In this document: in pieces, positions 1 to 62,561 of the stretch
How the letters are laid out: every line of letters begins with the position of its first letter
How positions within the stretch are numbered: the stretch's first letter is position 1
From: Eledone cirrhosa
Lineage: Eukaryota
NCBI GenBank assembly: GCA_964016885.1
Contig: OZ024758.1
Span: 7,378,001 to 7,442,000 of the forward strand
Direction of reading: 5' to 3'
DNA: 64,000 nucleotides
Made by a program: the position numbers and the translations under genes
The notes under the pieces: model-generated
What the model saw: the letters and a program-made list of their open reading frames with translations, nothing else
What the model was told of the DNA's origin: nothing
Database searches by the model: none

Positions 1-3000
1 TTATGTTGAGTTGAGTCAGCATTATGTTGAGTTGAGTCTGCCTTATGTTGAGTTGAGTCAGCATTATGTTGAATTGAGTCTGCCTTATGTTGAGTTGAGT
101 CAGCATTATGTTGAATTGATTCTACCTTATGTTGAGTTGAGTCTGCCTTATGTTGAGTTGAGTCAGCATTATGTTGAATTGATTCTACCTTATGTTGAGT
201 TGAGTCTGCCTTATGTTGAGTTGATTCAGCATTATGTTGAATTGATTCTACCTTATGTTGAGTTGAGTCTGCCTTATGTTGAGTTGAGTCAGCATTATGT
301 TGAATTGATTCTACCTTATGTTGAGTTGAGTCAGCATTATGTTGAGTTGAGTCTGCCTTATGTTGAGTTGATTCTACCTTATGTTGAGTTGAGTCAGCAT
401 TATGTTGAGTTGAGTCTGCCTTATGTTGAGTTGAGTCAGCATTATGTTGAATTGATTCTACCTTATGTTGAGTTTAGTCAGCATTATGTTGAACTGATTC
501 TACCTTATGTTGAGTTGAGTCAGCATTATGTTGAGTTGAGTCTGCCTTATGTTGAGTTGAGTCAGCATTATGTTGAGTTGAGTCAGCATTATGTTGAATT
601 GATTCTACCTTATGTTGAGTTGAGTCAGCATTATGTTGAATTGATTCTACCTTATGTTGAGTTGAGTCAGCATTATGTTGAATTGATTCTACCTTATGTT
701 GAGTTGAGTCAGCATTATGTTGAATTGATTCTACCTTATGTTGAGTTGAGTCTGCCTTATGTTGAGTTGAGTCAGCATTATGTTGAATTGATTCTACCTT
801 ATGTTGAGTTGAGTCTGCCTTATGTTGAGTTGAGTCAGCATTATGTTGAATTGATTCTACCTTATGTTGAGTTGAGTCAGCATTATGTTGAGTTGAGTCT
901 GCCTTATGTTGAGTTGAGTCAGCATTATGTTGAATTGATTCTACCTTATGTTGAGTTGAGTCAGCATTATGTTGAGTTGATTCTACCTTATGTTGAGTTG
1001 AGTCAGCATTATGTTGAGTTGAGTCTGCCTTATGTTGAGTTGAGTCAGCATTATGTTGAATTGATTCTACCTTATGTTGAGTTGAGTCTGCCTTATGTTG
1101 AGTTGAGTCAGCATTATGTTGAATTGATTCTACCTTATGTTGAGTTGAGTCTGCCTTATGTTGAGTTGAGTCAGCATTATGGTGAATTGATTCTACCTTA
1201 TGTTGAGTTGAGTCAGCATTATGTTGAGTTGATTCTACCTTATGTTGAGTTGAGTCAGCATTATGTTGAGTTGAGTCTGCCTTATGTTGACTTGAGTCAG
1301 CATTATGTTGAATTGATTCTACCTTATGTTGAGTTGAGTCAGCATTATGTTGAGTTGAGTCTGCCTTATGTTGAGTTGAGTCAGCATTATGTTGAATTGA
1401 TTCTACCTTATGTTGAGTTGAGTCAGCATTATGTTGAATTGATTCTACCTTATGTTGAGTTGAGTCAGCATTATGTTGAGTTGAGTTTGCCTTATGTTGA
1501 GTTGAGTCAGCATTATGTTGAATTGATTCTACCTTATGTTGAGTTGAGTCAGCATTATGTTGAGTTGAGTCAGCATTATGTTGAATTGATTCTACCTTAT
1601 GTTGAGTTGAGTCAGCATTATGTTGAATTGATTCTACCTTATGTTGAGTTGAGTCAGCATTATGTTGAATTGATTCTACCTTATGTTGAGTTGAGTCAGC
1701 ATTATGTTGAATTGATTCTACCTTATGTTCAGTTGAGTCTGCCTTATTTTGAGTTGAGTCAGCATTATATTGAATTGATTCTACCTTATGTTGAGTTGAG
1801 TCTGCCTTATGTTGAGTTGAGTCAGCATTATGTTGAATTGATTCTACCTTATGTTGAGTTGAGTCTGCCTTATGTTGAGTTGAGTCAGCATTATGTTGAA
1901 TTGATTCTACCTTATGTTGAGTTGAGTCAGCATTATGTTGAGTTGAGTCTGCCTTATGTTGAGTTGAGACAGCATTATGTTGAATTGAGTCTGCCTTATG
2001 TTGAGTTGAGTCAGCATTATGTTGAATTGATTCTACCTTATGTTGAGTTGAGTCTGCCTTATGTTGAGTTGAGTCAGCATTATGTTGAATTGATTCTACC
2101 TTATGTTGAGTTGAGTCTGCCTTATGTTGAGTTGAGTCAGCATTATGTTGAATTGATTCTACCTTATGTTGAGTTGAGTCAGCATTATGTTGAGTTGAGT
2201 CTGCCTTATGTTGAGTTGAGTCAGCATTATTTTGAATTGATTCTACCTTATGTTGAGTTGAGTCTGCCTTATGTTGACTTGAGTCAGCATTATGTTGAAT
2301 TGATTCTACCTTATGTTGAGTTGAGTCTGCCTTATGTTGAGTTGAGTCAGCATTATGTTGAATTGATTCTACCTTATGTTGAGTTGAGTCAGCATTATGT
2401 TGAGTTGATTCTACCTTATGTTGAGTTGAGTCAGCATTATGTTGAGTTGAGTCTGCCTTATGTTGAGTTGAGTCAGCATTATGTTGAATTGATTCTACCT
2501 TATGTTGAGTTGAGTCAGAATTATGTTGAATTGATTCTACCTTATGTTGAGTTGAGTCAGCATTATGTTGAGTTGAGTCAGCATTATGTTGAATTGATTC
2601 TACCTTATGTTGAGTTGAGTCTGCCTTATGTTGAGTTGAGTCAGCATTATGTTGAATTGATTCTACCTTATGTTGATTTGAGTCTGCCTTATGTTGAGTT
2701 GAGTCAGCATTATGTTGAATTGATTCTACCTTATGTTGAGTTGAGTCAGCATTATGTTGAGTTGAGTCTGCCTTATGTTGAGTTGAGTCAGCATTATGTT
2801 GAATTGATTCTACCTTATGTTGAGTTGAGTCTGCCTTATGTTGAGTTGAGTCAGCATTATGTTGAATTGATTCTACCTTATGTTGAGTTGAGTCTGCCTT
2901 ATGTTGAGTTGAGTCAGCATTATGTTGAATTGATTCTACCTTATGTTGAGTTGAGTCAGCATTATGTTGAGTTGATTCTACCTTATGTTGAGTTGAGTCA

Positions 3001-6000
3001 GCATTATGTTGAGTTGAGTCTGCCTTATGTTGAGTTGAGTCAGCATTATGTTGAATTGAATCTACCTCATGTTGAGTTGAGTCTGCCTTATGTTGAGTTG
3101 AGTCAGCATTATGTTGAATTGATTCTACCTTATGTTGAGTTGAGTCTGCCTTATGTTGAGTTGAGTCAGCATTATGTTGAATTGATTCTACCTTATGTTG
3201 AGTTGAGTCAGAATTATGTTGAGTTGAGTCTGCCTTATGTTGAGTTGAGTCAGCATTATGTTGAATTGATTCTACCTTATGTTGAGTTGAGTCTGCCTTA
3301 TGTTGAGTTGAGTCAGCATTATGTTGAATTGATTCTACCTTATGTTGAGTTGAGTCTGCCTTATGTTGAGTTGAGTCAGCATTATGTTGAATTGATTCTA
3401 CCTTATGTTGAGTTGAGTCAGCATTATGTTGAGTTGATTCTACCTTATGTTGAGTTGATTCTACCTTATGTTGAGTTGAGTCAGCATTATGTTGAGTTGA
3501 GTCTGCCTTATGTTGAGTTGAGTCAGCATTATGTTGAATTGATTCTACCTTATGTTGAGTTGAGTCAGCATTATGTTGAATTGATTCTACCTTATGTTGA
3601 GTTGAGCCAGCATTATGTTGAGTTGAGTCTGCCTTATGTTGAGTTGAGTCAGCATTATGTTGAATTGATTCTACCTTATGTTGAGTTGAGTCTGCCTTAT
3701 GTTGAGTTGTGTCTGCCTTATGTTGAGTTGATTCTACCTTATGTTGAGTTGAGTCAGCATTATGTTGAGTTGAGTCTGCCTTATGTTGAGTTGAATCAGC
3801 ATTATGTTGAATTGATTCTACCTTATGTTGAGTTGAGTCAGCATTATGTTGAATTGATTCTACCTTATGTTGAGTTGAGTCAGCATTATGTTGAGTTGAG
3901 TCTGCCTTATGTTGAGTTGATTCTACCTTATGTTGAGTTGAGTCAGCATTATGTTGAGTTGAGTCTACCTTATGTTGAGTTGATTCTACCTCATGTTGAG
4001 TTGAGTCAGCATTATGTTGAGTTGAGTCTGCCTTATGTTGAGTTGAATCAGCATTATGTTGAATTGATTCTACCTTATGTTGAGTTGAGTCAGCATTATG
4101 TTGAATTGATTCTACCTTATGTTGAGTTGAGTCTGCCTTATGTTGAGTTGAGTCAGCATTATGTTGAATTGATTCTACCTTATGTTGAGTTGAGTCAGCA
4201 TTATGTTGAGTTGAGTCTGCCTTATGTTGAGTTGAGTCAGCATTATTTTGAATTGATTCTACCTTATGTTGAGTTGAGTCTGCCTTATGTTGACTTGAGT
4301 CAGCATTATGTTGAATTGATTCTACCTTATGTTGAGTTGAGTCTGCCTTATGTTGAGTTGAGTCAGCATTATGTTGAATTGATTCTACCTTATATTGAGT
4401 TGAGTCAGCATTATGTTGAGTTGATTCTACCTTATGTTGAGTTGAGTCAGCATTATGTTGAGTTGAGTCTGCCTTATGTTGAGTTGAGTCAGCATTATGT
4501 TGAATTGATTCTACCTTATGTTGAGTTGAGTCAGCATTATGTTGAATTGATTCTACCTTATGTTGAGTTGAGTAAGCATTATGTTGAGTTGAGTCAGCAT
4601 TATGTTGAATTGATTCTACCTTATGTTGAGTTGAGTCTGCCTTATGTTGAGTTGAGTCAGCATTATGTTGAATTGATTCTACCTTATGTTGATTTGAGTC
4701 TGCCTTATGTTGAGTTGAGTCAGCATTATGTTGAATTGATTCTACCTTATGTTGAGTTGAGTCAGCATTATGTTGAGTTGAGTCTGCCTTATGTTGAGTT
4801 GAGTCAGCATTATGTTGAATTGATTCTACCTTATGTTGAGTTGAGTCTGCCTTATGTTGAGTTGAGTCAGCATTATGTTGAATTGATTCTACCTTATGTT
4901 GAGTTGAGTCTGCCTTATGTTGAGTTGAGTCAGCATTATGTTGAATTGATTCTACCTTATGTTGAGTTGAGTCAGCATTATGTTGAGTTGATTCTACCTT
5001 ATGTTGAGTTGAGTCAGCATTATGTTGAGTTGAGTCTGCCTTATGTTGAGTTGAGTCAGCATTATGTTGAATTGATTCTACCTTATGTTGAGTTGAGTCT
5101 GCCTTATGTTGAGTTGAGTCAGCATTATGTTGAATTGATTCTACCTTATGTTGAGTTGAGTCTGCCTTATGTTGAGTTGAGTCAGCATTATGTTGAATTG
5201 ATTCTACCTTATGTTGAGTTGAGTCAGAATTATGTTGAGTTGAGTCTGCCTTATGTTGAGTTGAGTCAGCATTATGTTGAATTGATTCTACCTTATGTTG
5301 AGTTGAGTCTGCCTTATGTTGAGTTGAGTCAGCATTATGTTGAATTGATTCTACCTTATGTTGAGTTGAGTCTGCCTTATGTTGAGTTGAGTCAGCATTA
5401 TGTTGAATTGATTCTACCTTATGTTGAGTTGAGTCAGCATTATGTTGAGTTGATTCTACCTTATGTTGAGTTGATTCTACCTTATGTTGAGTTGAGTCAG
5501 CATTATGTTGAGTTGAGTCTGCCTTATGTTGAGTTGAGTCAGCATTATGTTGAATTGATTCTACCTTATGTTGAGTTGAGTCAGCATTATGTTGAATTGA
5601 TTCTACCTTATGTTGAGTTGAGTCAGCATTATGTTGAGTTGAGTCTGCCTTATGTTGAGTTGAGTCAGCATTATGTTGAATTGATTCTACCTTATGTTGA
5701 GTTGAGTCTGCCTTATGTTGAGTTGTGTCTGCCTTATGTTGAGTTGATTCTACCTTATGTTGAGTTGAGTCAGCATTATGTTGAGTTGAGTCTGCCTTAT
5801 GTTGAGTTGAATCAGCATTATGTTGAATTGATTCTACCTTATGTTGAGTTGAGTCAGCATTATGTTGAATTGATTCTACCTTATGTTGAGTTGAGTCAGC
5901 ATTATGTTGAGTTGAGTCTGCCTTATGTTGAGTTGATTCTACCTTATGTTGAGTTGAGTCAGCATTATGTTGAGTTGAGTCTACCTTATGTTGAGTTGAT

Positions 6001-8052
6001 TCTACCTCATGTTGAGTTGAGTCAGCATTATGTTGAGTTGAGTCTGCCTTATGTTGAGTTGAATCAGCATTATGTTGAATTGATTCTACCTTATGTTGAG
6101 TTGAGTCAGCATTATGTTGAATTGATTCTACCTTATGTTGAGTTGAGTCTGCCTTATGTTGAGTTGAGTCAGCATTATGTTGAATTGATTCTACCTTATG
6201 TTGAGTTGAGTCAGCATTATGTTGAGTTGAGTCTGCCTTATGTTGAGTTGAGTCAGCATTATTTTGAATTGATTCTACCTTATGTTGAGTTGAGTCTGCC
6301 TTATGTTGACTTGAGTCAGCATTATGTTGAATTGATTCTACCTTATGTTGAGTTGAGTCTGCCTTATGTTGAGTTGAGTCAGCATTATGTTGAATTGATT
6401 CTACCTTATGTTGAGTTGAGTCAGCATTATGTTGAGTTGATTCTACCTTATGTTGAGTTGAGTCAGCATTATGTTGAGTTGAGTCTGCCTTATGTTGAGT
6501 TGAGTCAGCATTATGTTGAATTGATTCTACCTTATGTTGAGTTGAGTCAGCATTATGTTGAATTGATTCTACCTTATGTTGAGTTGAGTAAGCATTATGT
6601 TGAGTTGAGTCAGCATTATGTTGAATTGATTCTACCTTATGTTGAGTTGAGTCTGCCTTATGTTGAGTTGAGTCAGCATTATGTTGAATTGATTCTACCT
6701 TATGTTGATTTGAGTCTGCCTTATGTTGAGTTGAGTCAGCATTATGTTGAATTGATTCTACCTTATGTTGAGTTGAGTCAGCATTATGTTGAGTTGAGTC
6801 TGCCTTATGTTGAGTTGAGTCAGCATTATGTTGAATTGATTCTACCTTATGTTGAGTTGAGTCTGCCTTATGTTGAGTTGAGTCAGCATTATGTTGAATT
6901 GATTCTACCTTATGTTGAGTTGAGTCTGCCTTATGTTGAGTTGAGTCAGCATTATGTTGAATTGATTCTACCTTATGTTGAGTTGAGTCAGCATTATGTT
7001 GAGTTGATTCTACCTTATGTTGAGTTGAGTCAGCATTATGTTGAGTTGAGTCTGCCTTATGTTGAGTTGAGTCAGCATTATGTTGAATTGATTCTACCTT
7101 ATGTTGAGTTGAGTCTGCCTTATGTTGAGTTGAGTCAGCATTATGTTGAATTGATTCTACCTTATGTTGAGTTGAGTCTGCCTTATGTTGAGTTGAGTCA
7201 GCATTATGTTGAATTGATTCTACCTTATGTTGAGTTGAGTCAGAATTATGTTGAGTTGAGTCTGCCTTATGTTGAGTTGAGTCAGCATTATGTTGAATTG
7301 ATTCTACCTTATGTTGAGTTGAGTCTGCCTTATGTTGAGTTGAGTCAGCATTATGTTGAATTGATTCTACCTTATGTTGAGTTGAGTCTGCCTTATGTTG
7401 AGTTGAGTCAGCATTATGTTGAATTGATTCTACCTTATGTTGAGTTGAGTCAGCATTATGTTGAGTTGATTCTACCTTATGTTGAGTTGATTCTACCTTA
7501 TGTTGAGTTGAGTCAGCATTATGTTGAGTTGAGTCTGCCTTATGTTGAGTTGAGTCAGCATTATGTTGAATTGATTCTACCTTATGTTGAGTTGAGTCAG
7601 CATTATGTTGAATTGATTCTACCTTATGTTGAGTTGAGTCAGCATTATGTTGAGTTGAGTCTGCCTTATGTTGAGTTGAGTCAGCATTATGTTGAATTGA
7701 TTCTACCTTATGTTGAGTTGAGTCTGCCTTATGTTGAGTTGTGTCTGCCTTATGTTGAGTTGATTCTACCTTATGTTGAGTTGAGTCAGCATTATGTTGA
7801 GTTGAGTCTGCCTTATGTTGAGTTGAATCAGCATTATGTTGAATTGATTCTACCTTATGTTGAGTTGAGTCAGCATTATGTTGAATTGATTCTACCTTAT
7901 GTTGAGTTGAGTCAGCATTATGTTGAGTTGAGTCTGCCTTATGTTGAGTTGATTCTACCTTATGTTGAGTTGAGTCAGCATTATGTTGAGTTGAGTCTAC
8001 CTTATGTTGAGTTGATTCTACCTCATGTTGAGTTGAGTCAGCATTATGTTGA
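1..8052. repeat. 21-bp minisatellite with three monomer variants and a 2016-bp higher-order repeat; runs off the window start
   Basis: Monomers TTATGTTGAGTTGAGTCAGCA, TTATGTTGAGTTGAGTCTGCC and TTATGTTGARTTGATTCTACC. Rare variants recur at 2016-bp spacing (CATTATTTTG at 2225/4241/6257; GTTGAGTTGT at 3701/5717/7733). Confidence 0.98.
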
Positions 8053-8106
8053 GGTAGACTCAAGTAAAAACAAAGTGGTTCAAAGTCAGCTATATTTGTT
8101 TCATCA

Positions 8107-8307
8107 TGCGAGGGCCGGCTGAAAAGTTCATAGCTGACTATGAAGGCGTGATGCTAGAGCTGTGAAATCTTGCATGGATTAATTTCAACTCGTCCTATTA
8201 ATAACTGCATTGTTTCTTTCCAGGGACTATGTTGAAAAATAAACCTCATTTGGTCATTCCATGAGAGTATCTTGGTCAGCCAATGAACTTTTTAGTCGAT
8301 CCGCGTA
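8107..8307. mobile_element. ~200-bp mariner-type MITE, family M1
   Basis: TIRs near consensus TACGAGGGTCGGCTGAAAAGTTCATAGGCTGAC at both ends; the same internal sequence recurs elsewhere in the window. Confidence 0.85.
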
Positions 8308-12893: not shown

Positions 12894-12950
12894 ATGGCTT
12901 CTACAGGACTAGAACTGTTTCATTCGAAGGAAATCATCAGGAAAGCCCAT
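12894..12950 (-). ncRNA. Type I hammerhead ribozyme, family H1
   Basis: Minus strand AUGGGCUUUC CUGAUGA UUUCCUUCGAAU GAA ACAG-UUCUAGUC-CUGU A GAAGCCAU: intact core, GUA triplet, stems I-III pair (stem I with bulges). Confidence 0.75.
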
Positions 12951-61214: not shown

Positions 61215-61464
61215 GGTATATATACTATATATATACATATATATGTATATATGTATATATATATGGCATACGTCAAGACGGGCGGTCTCAAAAGTGAAAC
61301 TAATTTTTTGCAAGTTACGATACACACGCAATTGTATGGATTTCTTAATATATATATATATGTGTGAGTGTGTATATGTGTGTATATATATATATGTGTG
61401 TGTGTATGTATATATATATATATATATATATATAAGATCAAAAGATGGTTAAAGGAGTTCCATG

Positions 61465-61535
61465 TATTTTATTATGCGCATTTCAAAAACAAACATCATC
61501 ATGCAATAATATTTGTGTTTTCATCAGATAAAACA
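61465..61535 (-). ncRNA. Type I hammerhead ribozyme, family H3, with long stem II
   Basis: Minus UGUUUUAU CUGAUGA [16-position stem II, one mismatch, GCAU loop] GAA AUGCGCAU A AUAAAAUA; 8-bp stem I, palindromic stem III. Confidence 0.85.
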
Positions 61536-61607
61536 GGAGAACATGACATGAAGGCCAAACAACACTTGTGGATAGTGCAGTTTTAAATCAACATAAAACT
61601 CACCTCC

Positions 61608-61648
<41 letters not shown>

Positions 61649-61673
61649 CTGTATATATATATATATATATATA

Positions 61674-61810
61674 ACGAAGGAAATGTGGTAAGGAACCAGG
61701 TGGACCATAACGCACCAAAGTACTCAATACTTGAGGTAGTAGAGTGGGTAATAGGAACCAGTAAGACCCCGACAGCTGAGCTCAAGCCGTTTCGACGGTT
61801 AATTCTGGAC
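61674..61810. mobile_element. P2 element, unrearranged, inside (TA)n
   Basis: Matches 14169-14307. Confidence 0.8.
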
Positions 61811-62100
61811 TAATATATATATATATATATGTGTGTGTGTTTGTATATATATATGTGTTTGTGTCATCATCATCGTTTAACGTCTATCTTCCACGCAAGC
61901 ATGGGTTTAGACGTATATATATGTTTGTGTGTATATATGTGTTTGTGTGTGTATATATATATATGTGTGTTTGTGTGTATATATATGTGTCTGTATATAT
62001 ATATATGTGTATATATATATTTATGCACACATACACATTAGTATGAATTGTAAATGTCACAAATTAGTTTCACTTTCGAGACCGCCCGTCTTGACGTATG

Positions 62101-62143
<43 letters not shown>

Positions 62144-62428
62144 GTATATATATATATATAAACGGAAAAAATGAAACGAAATTTCATTTCCCACTCTTAG
62201 TACGGCTGTTACTTAAATATAAGTATGCACACGTACATACATATATGTATACATACGTACAGTAGTATGTATATATATATACATACATGCACACATATAT
62301 ATATATATGTACGTATGGATTCACCGAACATTTATTATAATGCTCGGTGTGTTTGTAAACAAACATCCCGTATTAAGCCGTAGTGTCCAGCAACCATCGT
62401 TGCTCGTTCGTTCAACACTGACAAAGGA

Positions 62429-62471
62429 ACGCTATACTAGTTTCAAGCTTATTAGCTATCGTCAGCAACGT
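62429..62471 (-). ncRNA. Minimal type I hammerhead ribozyme, family H4
   Basis: Minus ACGUUG CUGACGA U-AGCU-AAUA-AGCU-U GAA ACUAGU A UAGCGU; 6-bp stem I with two GU pairs, palindromic ACUAGU stem III, GUA triplet. Confidence 0.8.
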
Positions 62472-62561
62472 ATACCTTCCTGCCAGATTGTTGAACGTAT
62501 ATGTGTACAATATATAGTATATAGTGTAGTAGTAGTGGGAGTAGGAGTAGTAGTAGGAGTA

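Follow-up and report, generated by a model that had tools for sequence, protein, structure and literature searches.

Noncoding, hammerhead-bearing retrozymes are a kind of element already known (PMC7229834; 10.64898/2026.07.22.740005; PMC4209133). The closest known ribozyme to the one described here is HHR_Amex2 of the axolotl, whose monomer cleaves at 22% per hour and whose dimer performs much better (PMC7229834). For Xenopus retrozymes, eight of nine predicted dimers failed to cleave in vitro (10.64898/2026.07.22.740005), and mobilization of non-LTR retrozymes by PLEs has been proposed rather than demonstrated in published work. Features described for PLEs themselves include a single-ended tail, a truncated 5' copy in inverted orientation, and a bias toward (TA)n (PMC8557442, PMC3846280). 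The minimal hammerheads (min-HHR) have a helix I of 4 to 5 bp, a helix II of 7 to 8 bp, a bulged 5' nucleotide, a G10.1-C11.1 pair, and no helix III (PMC4209133).

Here, we analyzed a hammerhead motif, H4, in a 64,000-nt stretch of Eledone cirrhosa DNA (the window) from a microsatellite-rich genome of 3.0 Gb. H4 is a type I hammerhead motif within a copy, truncated and likely inactive, of a noncoding 420-bp tandem family with thousands of copies, which is most likely a non-LTR retrozyme moved by PLE enzymes. As one orphan among tens of thousands, the single H4 motif is of little weight. The family, in turn, forms a very large population of probable retrozymes whose ends fall strictly at two points, and its architecture, beyond co-occurrence, ties retrozymes to PLE-type integration. 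A young autonomous PLE, to which a second hammerhead (H3) belongs, adjoins H4 as a candidate mobilizing enzyme. Coordinates are collected in Table 1.

Table 1. Features of the H4 locus and of a related tandem family
Feature	Position	Strand	Basis
Hammerhead H4, type I	62429..62471	minus	sequence, descriptor scan, shuffles, family pair counts
Extended stem I of H4	about 62409..62497	minus	fold z = -3.1
5'-truncated solo copy of the 420-bp unit, 345 bp	62158..62502	minus	BLAST limits in 29 other loci, unit map, alignment to L161, octamer scan
56-nt tail separating two 3' ends, short (unit 217, window 62214) and long (unit 273, window 62158)	62158..62213	minus	end tabulation, fold
(TA)n target at the 3' end of the element	62103..62157	none	sequence
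3' end (last ~180 nt) of the terminal repeat of an autonomous Hydra-like PLE, with hammerhead H3	61421..61600	minus	descriptor scan, 27-mer count, ORF-bearing loci
Third short repeat family in (TA)n, between H3 and H4	61652..61813	minus	BLAST matches in other loci
310-bp tandem family	L143:2218-2313, L187, L195, L210-L215		

A type I hammerhead with an extended stem I

On the minus strand (62471-62429), H4 consists of a 6-bp stem I (ACGUUG in the 5' strand, UAGCGU in the 3' strand), the CUGACGA core, a U, stem II with its loop (AGCU/AAUA/AGCU), a second U, GAA, the self-complementary stem III ACUAGU, and A17, which precedes the 3' strand of stem I. These parts comprise C3 U4 G5 A6 N7 G8 A9, G12 A13 A14 A15, and U16 H17, with three helices and an open stem I, as in type I hammerheads. 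The GUA triplet places the predicted cut at 62435/62434. Two G.U pairs occur within stem I of the window copy, whose 43-mer differs from the family majority solely at position 1.1 (G.U instead of G-C). A strict hammerhead descriptor matched once in the window and in none of 200 dinucleotide shuffles. The first-pass annotation had recognized a hammerhead here, and every element that it listed was present, including the palindromic stem III, from which dimer cleavage is predicted. H4 did not reach the gathering score of any Rfam model (best HH9, 15.5 bits versus 52; E, 0.28).

The base pair 10.1-11.1 of stem II is absent from H4. It is replaced by a U10.1.U11.1 mismatch, which recurs in 145 of 149 family copies and is a known, tolerated variant of natural hammerheads (PMC3088659). 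Together with the 2-nt loop III, this mismatch predicts weak activity of the monomer. Cores resembling a hammerhead, with U...U closing a short stem II, were also seen at 12940 and 14668 of the window (minus strand) and in loci L111 and L112; the core at 12940 passed a loose descriptor, and relatives recur in other loci. Candidates from a whole-window Rfam scan were rejected, being, among the 150 matches listed of 380, microsatellite-driven hits of microRNA type below the gathering score.

The region 62400-62500 folded better than shuffled sequences (z = -3.1; 0 of 200 shuffles folded as well) because stem I extends, past an internal loop, into a long helix with interruptions, whereas the 43-mer alone gave a z of -0.4. 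The ribozyme is thus larger than the 43 nt first assigned to it. The label "minimal" also had to be dropped, since H4 lies outside the min-HHR definition as given in PMC4209133. Within the extended stem I, U1.7 (62428) is unpaired in the window copy, and a U occupied this position in all 115 distinct copies from three families. A tertiary contact between U1.7 and loop II has been described for hammerheads (PMC11875169), and U1.7 is here a candidate partner of the last A in loop II.

A family of 420-bp tandem units

A DNA search with the window element gave 40 scored matches with 97 to 100% identity (one of them the window itself) out of 530 candidates. The unit is 420 bp long and is arranged head to tail (period 420, 98% matches). 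Conserved homologs exist as thousands of family copies: exact 27-mer matches numbered 8,522 for subfamily A, to which the window's unit belongs, and 17,477 for the sister subfamily B (484-bp unit in L138). A descriptor common to A, B, and a 310-bp family yielded 36,770 matches, and the reversed-pattern controls gave 0. The family or a sister variant was present on contigs X2, X5, and X7. Tandem arrays reached about 10 units, with one type I hammerhead per unit. The functional unit is this 420-nt tandem monomer, which the first-pass annotation had overlooked; what lies in the window is an orphaned, truncated version of it.

The units are noncoding, and an LTR layout is absent. In the 13 larger loci, no array contained an RT ORF, and the long frames listed lay outside the arrays or in low-complexity repeats. 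At 420 bp, the unit falls within the 150 to 450 bp of the short tandem units of non-LTR retrozymes. Of 117 copies, 101 carried the octamer ATGCAAAT, a putative snRNA promoter element. When folded as circles, the A and B monomers were 68% and 69% paired, respectively, and each lay below 40 of 40 shuffles; self-complementary tracts rich in TA contribute to this stability, and the active hammerhead was absent from both minimum-energy folds. We found no description of the H4 family in the literature, the supplements of which were covered in part.

The seven complete units of L161, distributed over both arms, differed by 0 to 3 positions, a near-identity that fits the expectation of one long copying event; a circular and a linear multimeric template would fit such arrays equally. 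Blocks of two or four units were duplicated in the arrays of L162, L169, and L179, and local duplication of this kind enlarged some arrays after they had inserted. These duplications favor a reading in which the arrays are satellite DNA spread at the DNA level, through unequal crossover or extrachromosomal DNA circles, with the hammerhead as a passive relic. We regard this as very improbable, because the copies are dispersed over many contigs, have fixed 3' ends in (TA)n, and exhibit 5' truncation and inversion, and because their stems carry compensatory changes between families. Dimeric circular templates, suggested by the period-2 arrays of L162 and L169 (13 to 14 differences between phases and mostly 0 within), were rejected. 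In L169, the phase is lost at the ends and the two arms are approximately as diverged as the phases, and L179 holds a duplicated four-unit block; local duplication therefore suffices, and no dimeric circle is needed.

The higher-order repeats of L162, L169, and L179 may represent early satellite formation or an assembly effect. Another tandem family (L027:321-1001) has the TTTATCG junction motif and the region of the tail hairpin in common with the H4 unit. Additionally, the window contains a 7.7-kb short-period tandem array (474-8153), open over 2559 codons on the minus strand, which is probably a satellite.

Variation and covariation of the ribozyme

We compared 149 distinct A/B copies anchored on their flanks. 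The core was intact in 129 of them, a conservation inflated by the fact that the loci were mostly chosen by ribozyme letters. Common variants sat on N7, loop II, position 1.1, and the third pair of stem I. Position 1.1 was G-C in 127 copies and G.U in 22, the U form being overrepresented via the query of the DNA search (1 of 100 among the unbiased matches listed). The third pair of stem I was U.G in 112 copies, G.U in 28, A-U in 6, and C-G in 1, and was unpaired in 2, so that pairing was kept in 147 of 149. In the 310-bp tandem family, stems I, II, and III are all swapped with pairing kept, and the U.U closure, an AAYA loop, a palindromic stem III (ACGCGU), and the GUA site are retained. As judged from the aligned copies, the third-pair variants and these stem exchanges mean that stems I to III covary across the three families. 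Conservation inside one young family partly reflects recent common descent.

Other readings of these variants were considered and rejected. Miscopying at a ligation junction, suggested by C or T at position 1.1 within arrays, proved to be a query artifact, with C in 99 of 100 unbiased matches listed. The possibility that the ribozyme sits inside a spliceosomal intron (donor GTAAGT, acceptor CAG) was rejected because the donor was not conserved (GTAAGT in 82 and GAAAGT in 45 of 140).

Two-armed insertions with fixed ends

A typical array consists of two back-to-back arms that end in (TA)n at fixed points 56 nt apart. Among 100 arm 3' ends from 61 loci, 76 lay at one of two fixed sites (unit 217 or 273, numbered from the cut site), and 66 of these 76 ran into TA; the remaining 24 ends include secondary breaks and three matches of another family. 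Both ends were at fixed sites in 24 of 34 two-armed insertions, and all 24 combined one short with one long end. They count as 23 independent insertions because L158 is a duplicated segment, and edge-cut rows (L008, and L019, which is short plus short) were left out of the tally. No sequence difference was found between terminal and internal tails. The family has 5' truncation, an inverted 5' copy, a tail at one end, and a microsatellite target, i.e., PLE-type insertion features. The combination of tandem ribozyme units with this two-armed, PLE-like layout in (TA)n therefore identifies the family as a probable animal non-LTR retrozyme.

The same end layout is found in the H3 PLE, and retrozymes are reported as related to pLTRs; both points favor the alternative that the unit is a solo terminal repeat (pLTR) of an undiscovered autonomous PLE and that the arrays are stacked pLTRs. 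We consider this unlikely. The sequence 5' of the unit in all mapped loci was another unit, an inversion, or flank, and never an ORF, whereas ORF-bearing copies of the H3 family appeared at once, with a YRDD motif in 4 of the 10 loci that had been selected because their H3 motifs form widely spaced pairs. An ORF with RT plus GIY-YIG is flanked by the H3 repeat; no such ORF was found next to the H4 unit in the loci mapped. Among 50 GIY-YIG loci, presumably mostly Neptune-like by their motifs, no autonomous PLE had terminal repeats with homology to the H4 unit; the three long unit matches in these loci (in two of them) were inserted retrozyme copies.

Loci L106 to L125 contained several PLE families, which we take to be Neptune-like, with RYLDD, a CxxxxCxxC linker, and long open frames of up to 1096 aa. 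Some of these families had atypical hammerhead cores in their 3' repeats.

The window copy covers unit positions of about 352-420 and then 1-273. Its start lies ~70 nt 5' of the cut site and its end, at position 273, in (TA)n, with a single ribozyme in between. Its 56-nt tail contains a hairpin in the predicted fold. An octamer scan found no octamer in the window copy, from which the corresponding part of the unit is missing, and no inverted arm was recognizable beside it. Because it has neither a second ribozyme nor the octamer, the copy is probably dead. With one ribozyme, no octamer, and no tandem partner, monomer release is impossible; at most, weak cleavage, or cleavage in trans together with an RNA of the family, would be expected within a read-through transcript.

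The H3 element and the interval between H3 and H4

The H3 core lies at 61527 (minus strand), with an AUA cleavage site at 61473/61472, and its 27-mer had 17,206 matches. Two direct H3 repeats surround an 808-aa frame in L217, and an 821-aa frame in L221 has DKT, CxCX5C, CxxC, and CxH motifs. The RT part of this element had 150 scored matches that were 99 to 100% identical, many of them in full 821-aa frames; the 821-aa protein was not recognized in a Pfam search. The H3-flanked ORFs and the near-identical intact frames indicate that H3 is the terminal-repeat ribozyme of a separate, young, autonomous Hydra-like PLE. This intact-ORF family follows the same end logic as the H4 unit, its short end being CTT and then ATAT in both. 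A comparison of the H4 unit with the H3 repeat gave no real homology (best match, 16 nt).

H3 and H4 lie on the same strand, 927 nt apart from motif to motif and 962 nt from cut to cut. The first-pass annotation had given this distance as 900 bp. Its expectation that no heterodimer forms is supported: pairing of ACUAGU with AUGCGCAU was predicted at +0.3 kcal/mol, versus -4.8 and -10.5 kcal/mol for the homoduplexes. Because no heteroduplex forms, each ribozyme is without a partner in cis. The suggested ~960-nt RNA spanning both motifs fared differently. The shared strand, the 962 nt between the cuts, and the presence of both families in some loci would suit joint excision of a functional ~962-nt RNA, possibly circularized. 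We find this scarcely credible: H3 and H4 belong to separate high-copy families of variable strand and spacing, the interval is pieced together from three or more other repeats plus microsatellites, and no heteroduplex forms. In 29 H4 loci, the match never continued into H3. Among 185 loci (many overlapping), the two co-occurred in 10 independent places with varying strand and spacing; the same-strand distances with H4 upstream were 842, 957, 1126, 1265, 1407, and 3013 nt. Since the spacing is not fixed elsewhere, the ~960-nt RNA is therefore an accident of nested (TA)n insertions.

The interval also holds microsatellites beside the third repeat and a fragment at 62060-62103. The third family forms two arms in L062, where its ends are separated by about 99 nt, and its fragment in the window (61652-61813) lacks a standard hammerhead core. 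A pair of inverted repeats of ~45 nt (61265-61310 and 62060-62103) brackets H3 and the third family; these may be the outer ends of an older two-armed insertion that hosts the nested others.

Proposed cycle of the retrozyme

We infer that the H4 family is transcribed, cleaved, and circularized and that it has a partner enzyme. Tandem loci would be transcribed from an internal, octamer-bearing promoter, and adjacent ribozymes would then pair via ACUAGU and cut at GUA, freeing 420-nt monomers, which ligation would probably close into circles. The (TA)n target would be nicked by a PLE reverse transcriptase/endonuclease, which would prime at the two fixed sites via TAT-type microhomology and copy more than one unit length. 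Several points speak against activity: stem III is weak, stem II is closed by U.U, the minimum-energy circles do not contain the active fold, and most of the Xenopus dimers failed in vitro.

We tentatively suggest, with considerable doubt, that the insertions are a genome-scale record of retrozyme movement, in which a PLE enzyme (plausibly that of the very active Hydra-like element of H3) starts synthesis on either side of a broken (TA)n tract, using two fixed sites that lie 56 nt apart on a 420-nt circle produced by the hammerhead, and continues copying around that circle. If this is true, the genome holds a matched pair for such a mobilization route, i.e., an intact 821-aa enzyme and a small template.

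Comparison with known systems

Like Rtz_353/HHR_Amex2 of the axolotl, the H4 family has noncoding tandem units that are each a few hundred bases long and carry one type I hammerhead, a GC content under 50%, a highly self-paired predicted circle, a U.U at the base of helix II, and a weak helix III (PMC7229834). It differs in its 420-bp unit and in its 2-nt loop III, where HHR_Amex2 has 2 bp plus a tetraloop. Two-armed insertions, fixed ends, and (TA)n targeting are features of the H4 family that do not appear in the sections compared on the axolotl retrozymes, for which expression and circles are demonstrated (PMC7229834). Newt satellite 2 is likewise a tandem hammerhead repeat; it cleaves as a dimer and is reported with an internal snRNA-type promoter (as cited in PMC2220036 and PMC7229834). 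The conserved octamer of the H4 unit is a candidate promoter element.

With the PLE min-HHR, H4 shares palindromic positions around helix III and predicted dimer activity, but it has an extended helix I of 6 bp, a helix II of 4 bp, no G10.1-C11.1 pair, and no adjoining ORF (PMC4209133). The EN+ PLEs of the Hydra clade have similar insertions, with 5' truncation, an inverted 5' copy, a tail at one end, and a (TA)n preference, as well as a hammerhead in the terminal repeat (PMC8557442, PMC3846280). Unlike them, the H4 unit encodes no protein, and its tail is 56 nt long versus the 30 to 40 bp described. The DKT, CxCX5C, CxxC, and CxH motifs of the H3 element match the Hydra description; its protein has RWT where Hydra has RWK (PMC8557442).

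The PLE-derived retrozymes of Xenopus resemble the H4 family in that monomeric, dimeric, and multimeric copies co-occur with PLEs (10.64898/2026.07.22.740005). Their link to PLEs consists of co-occurrence and pLTR homology; that of the H4 family is insertion architecture, with no pLTR homology found. By the definition used there (two consecutive units with complete ribozymes), the H4 family includes loci of the active type, of which the window copy is a solo offspring.
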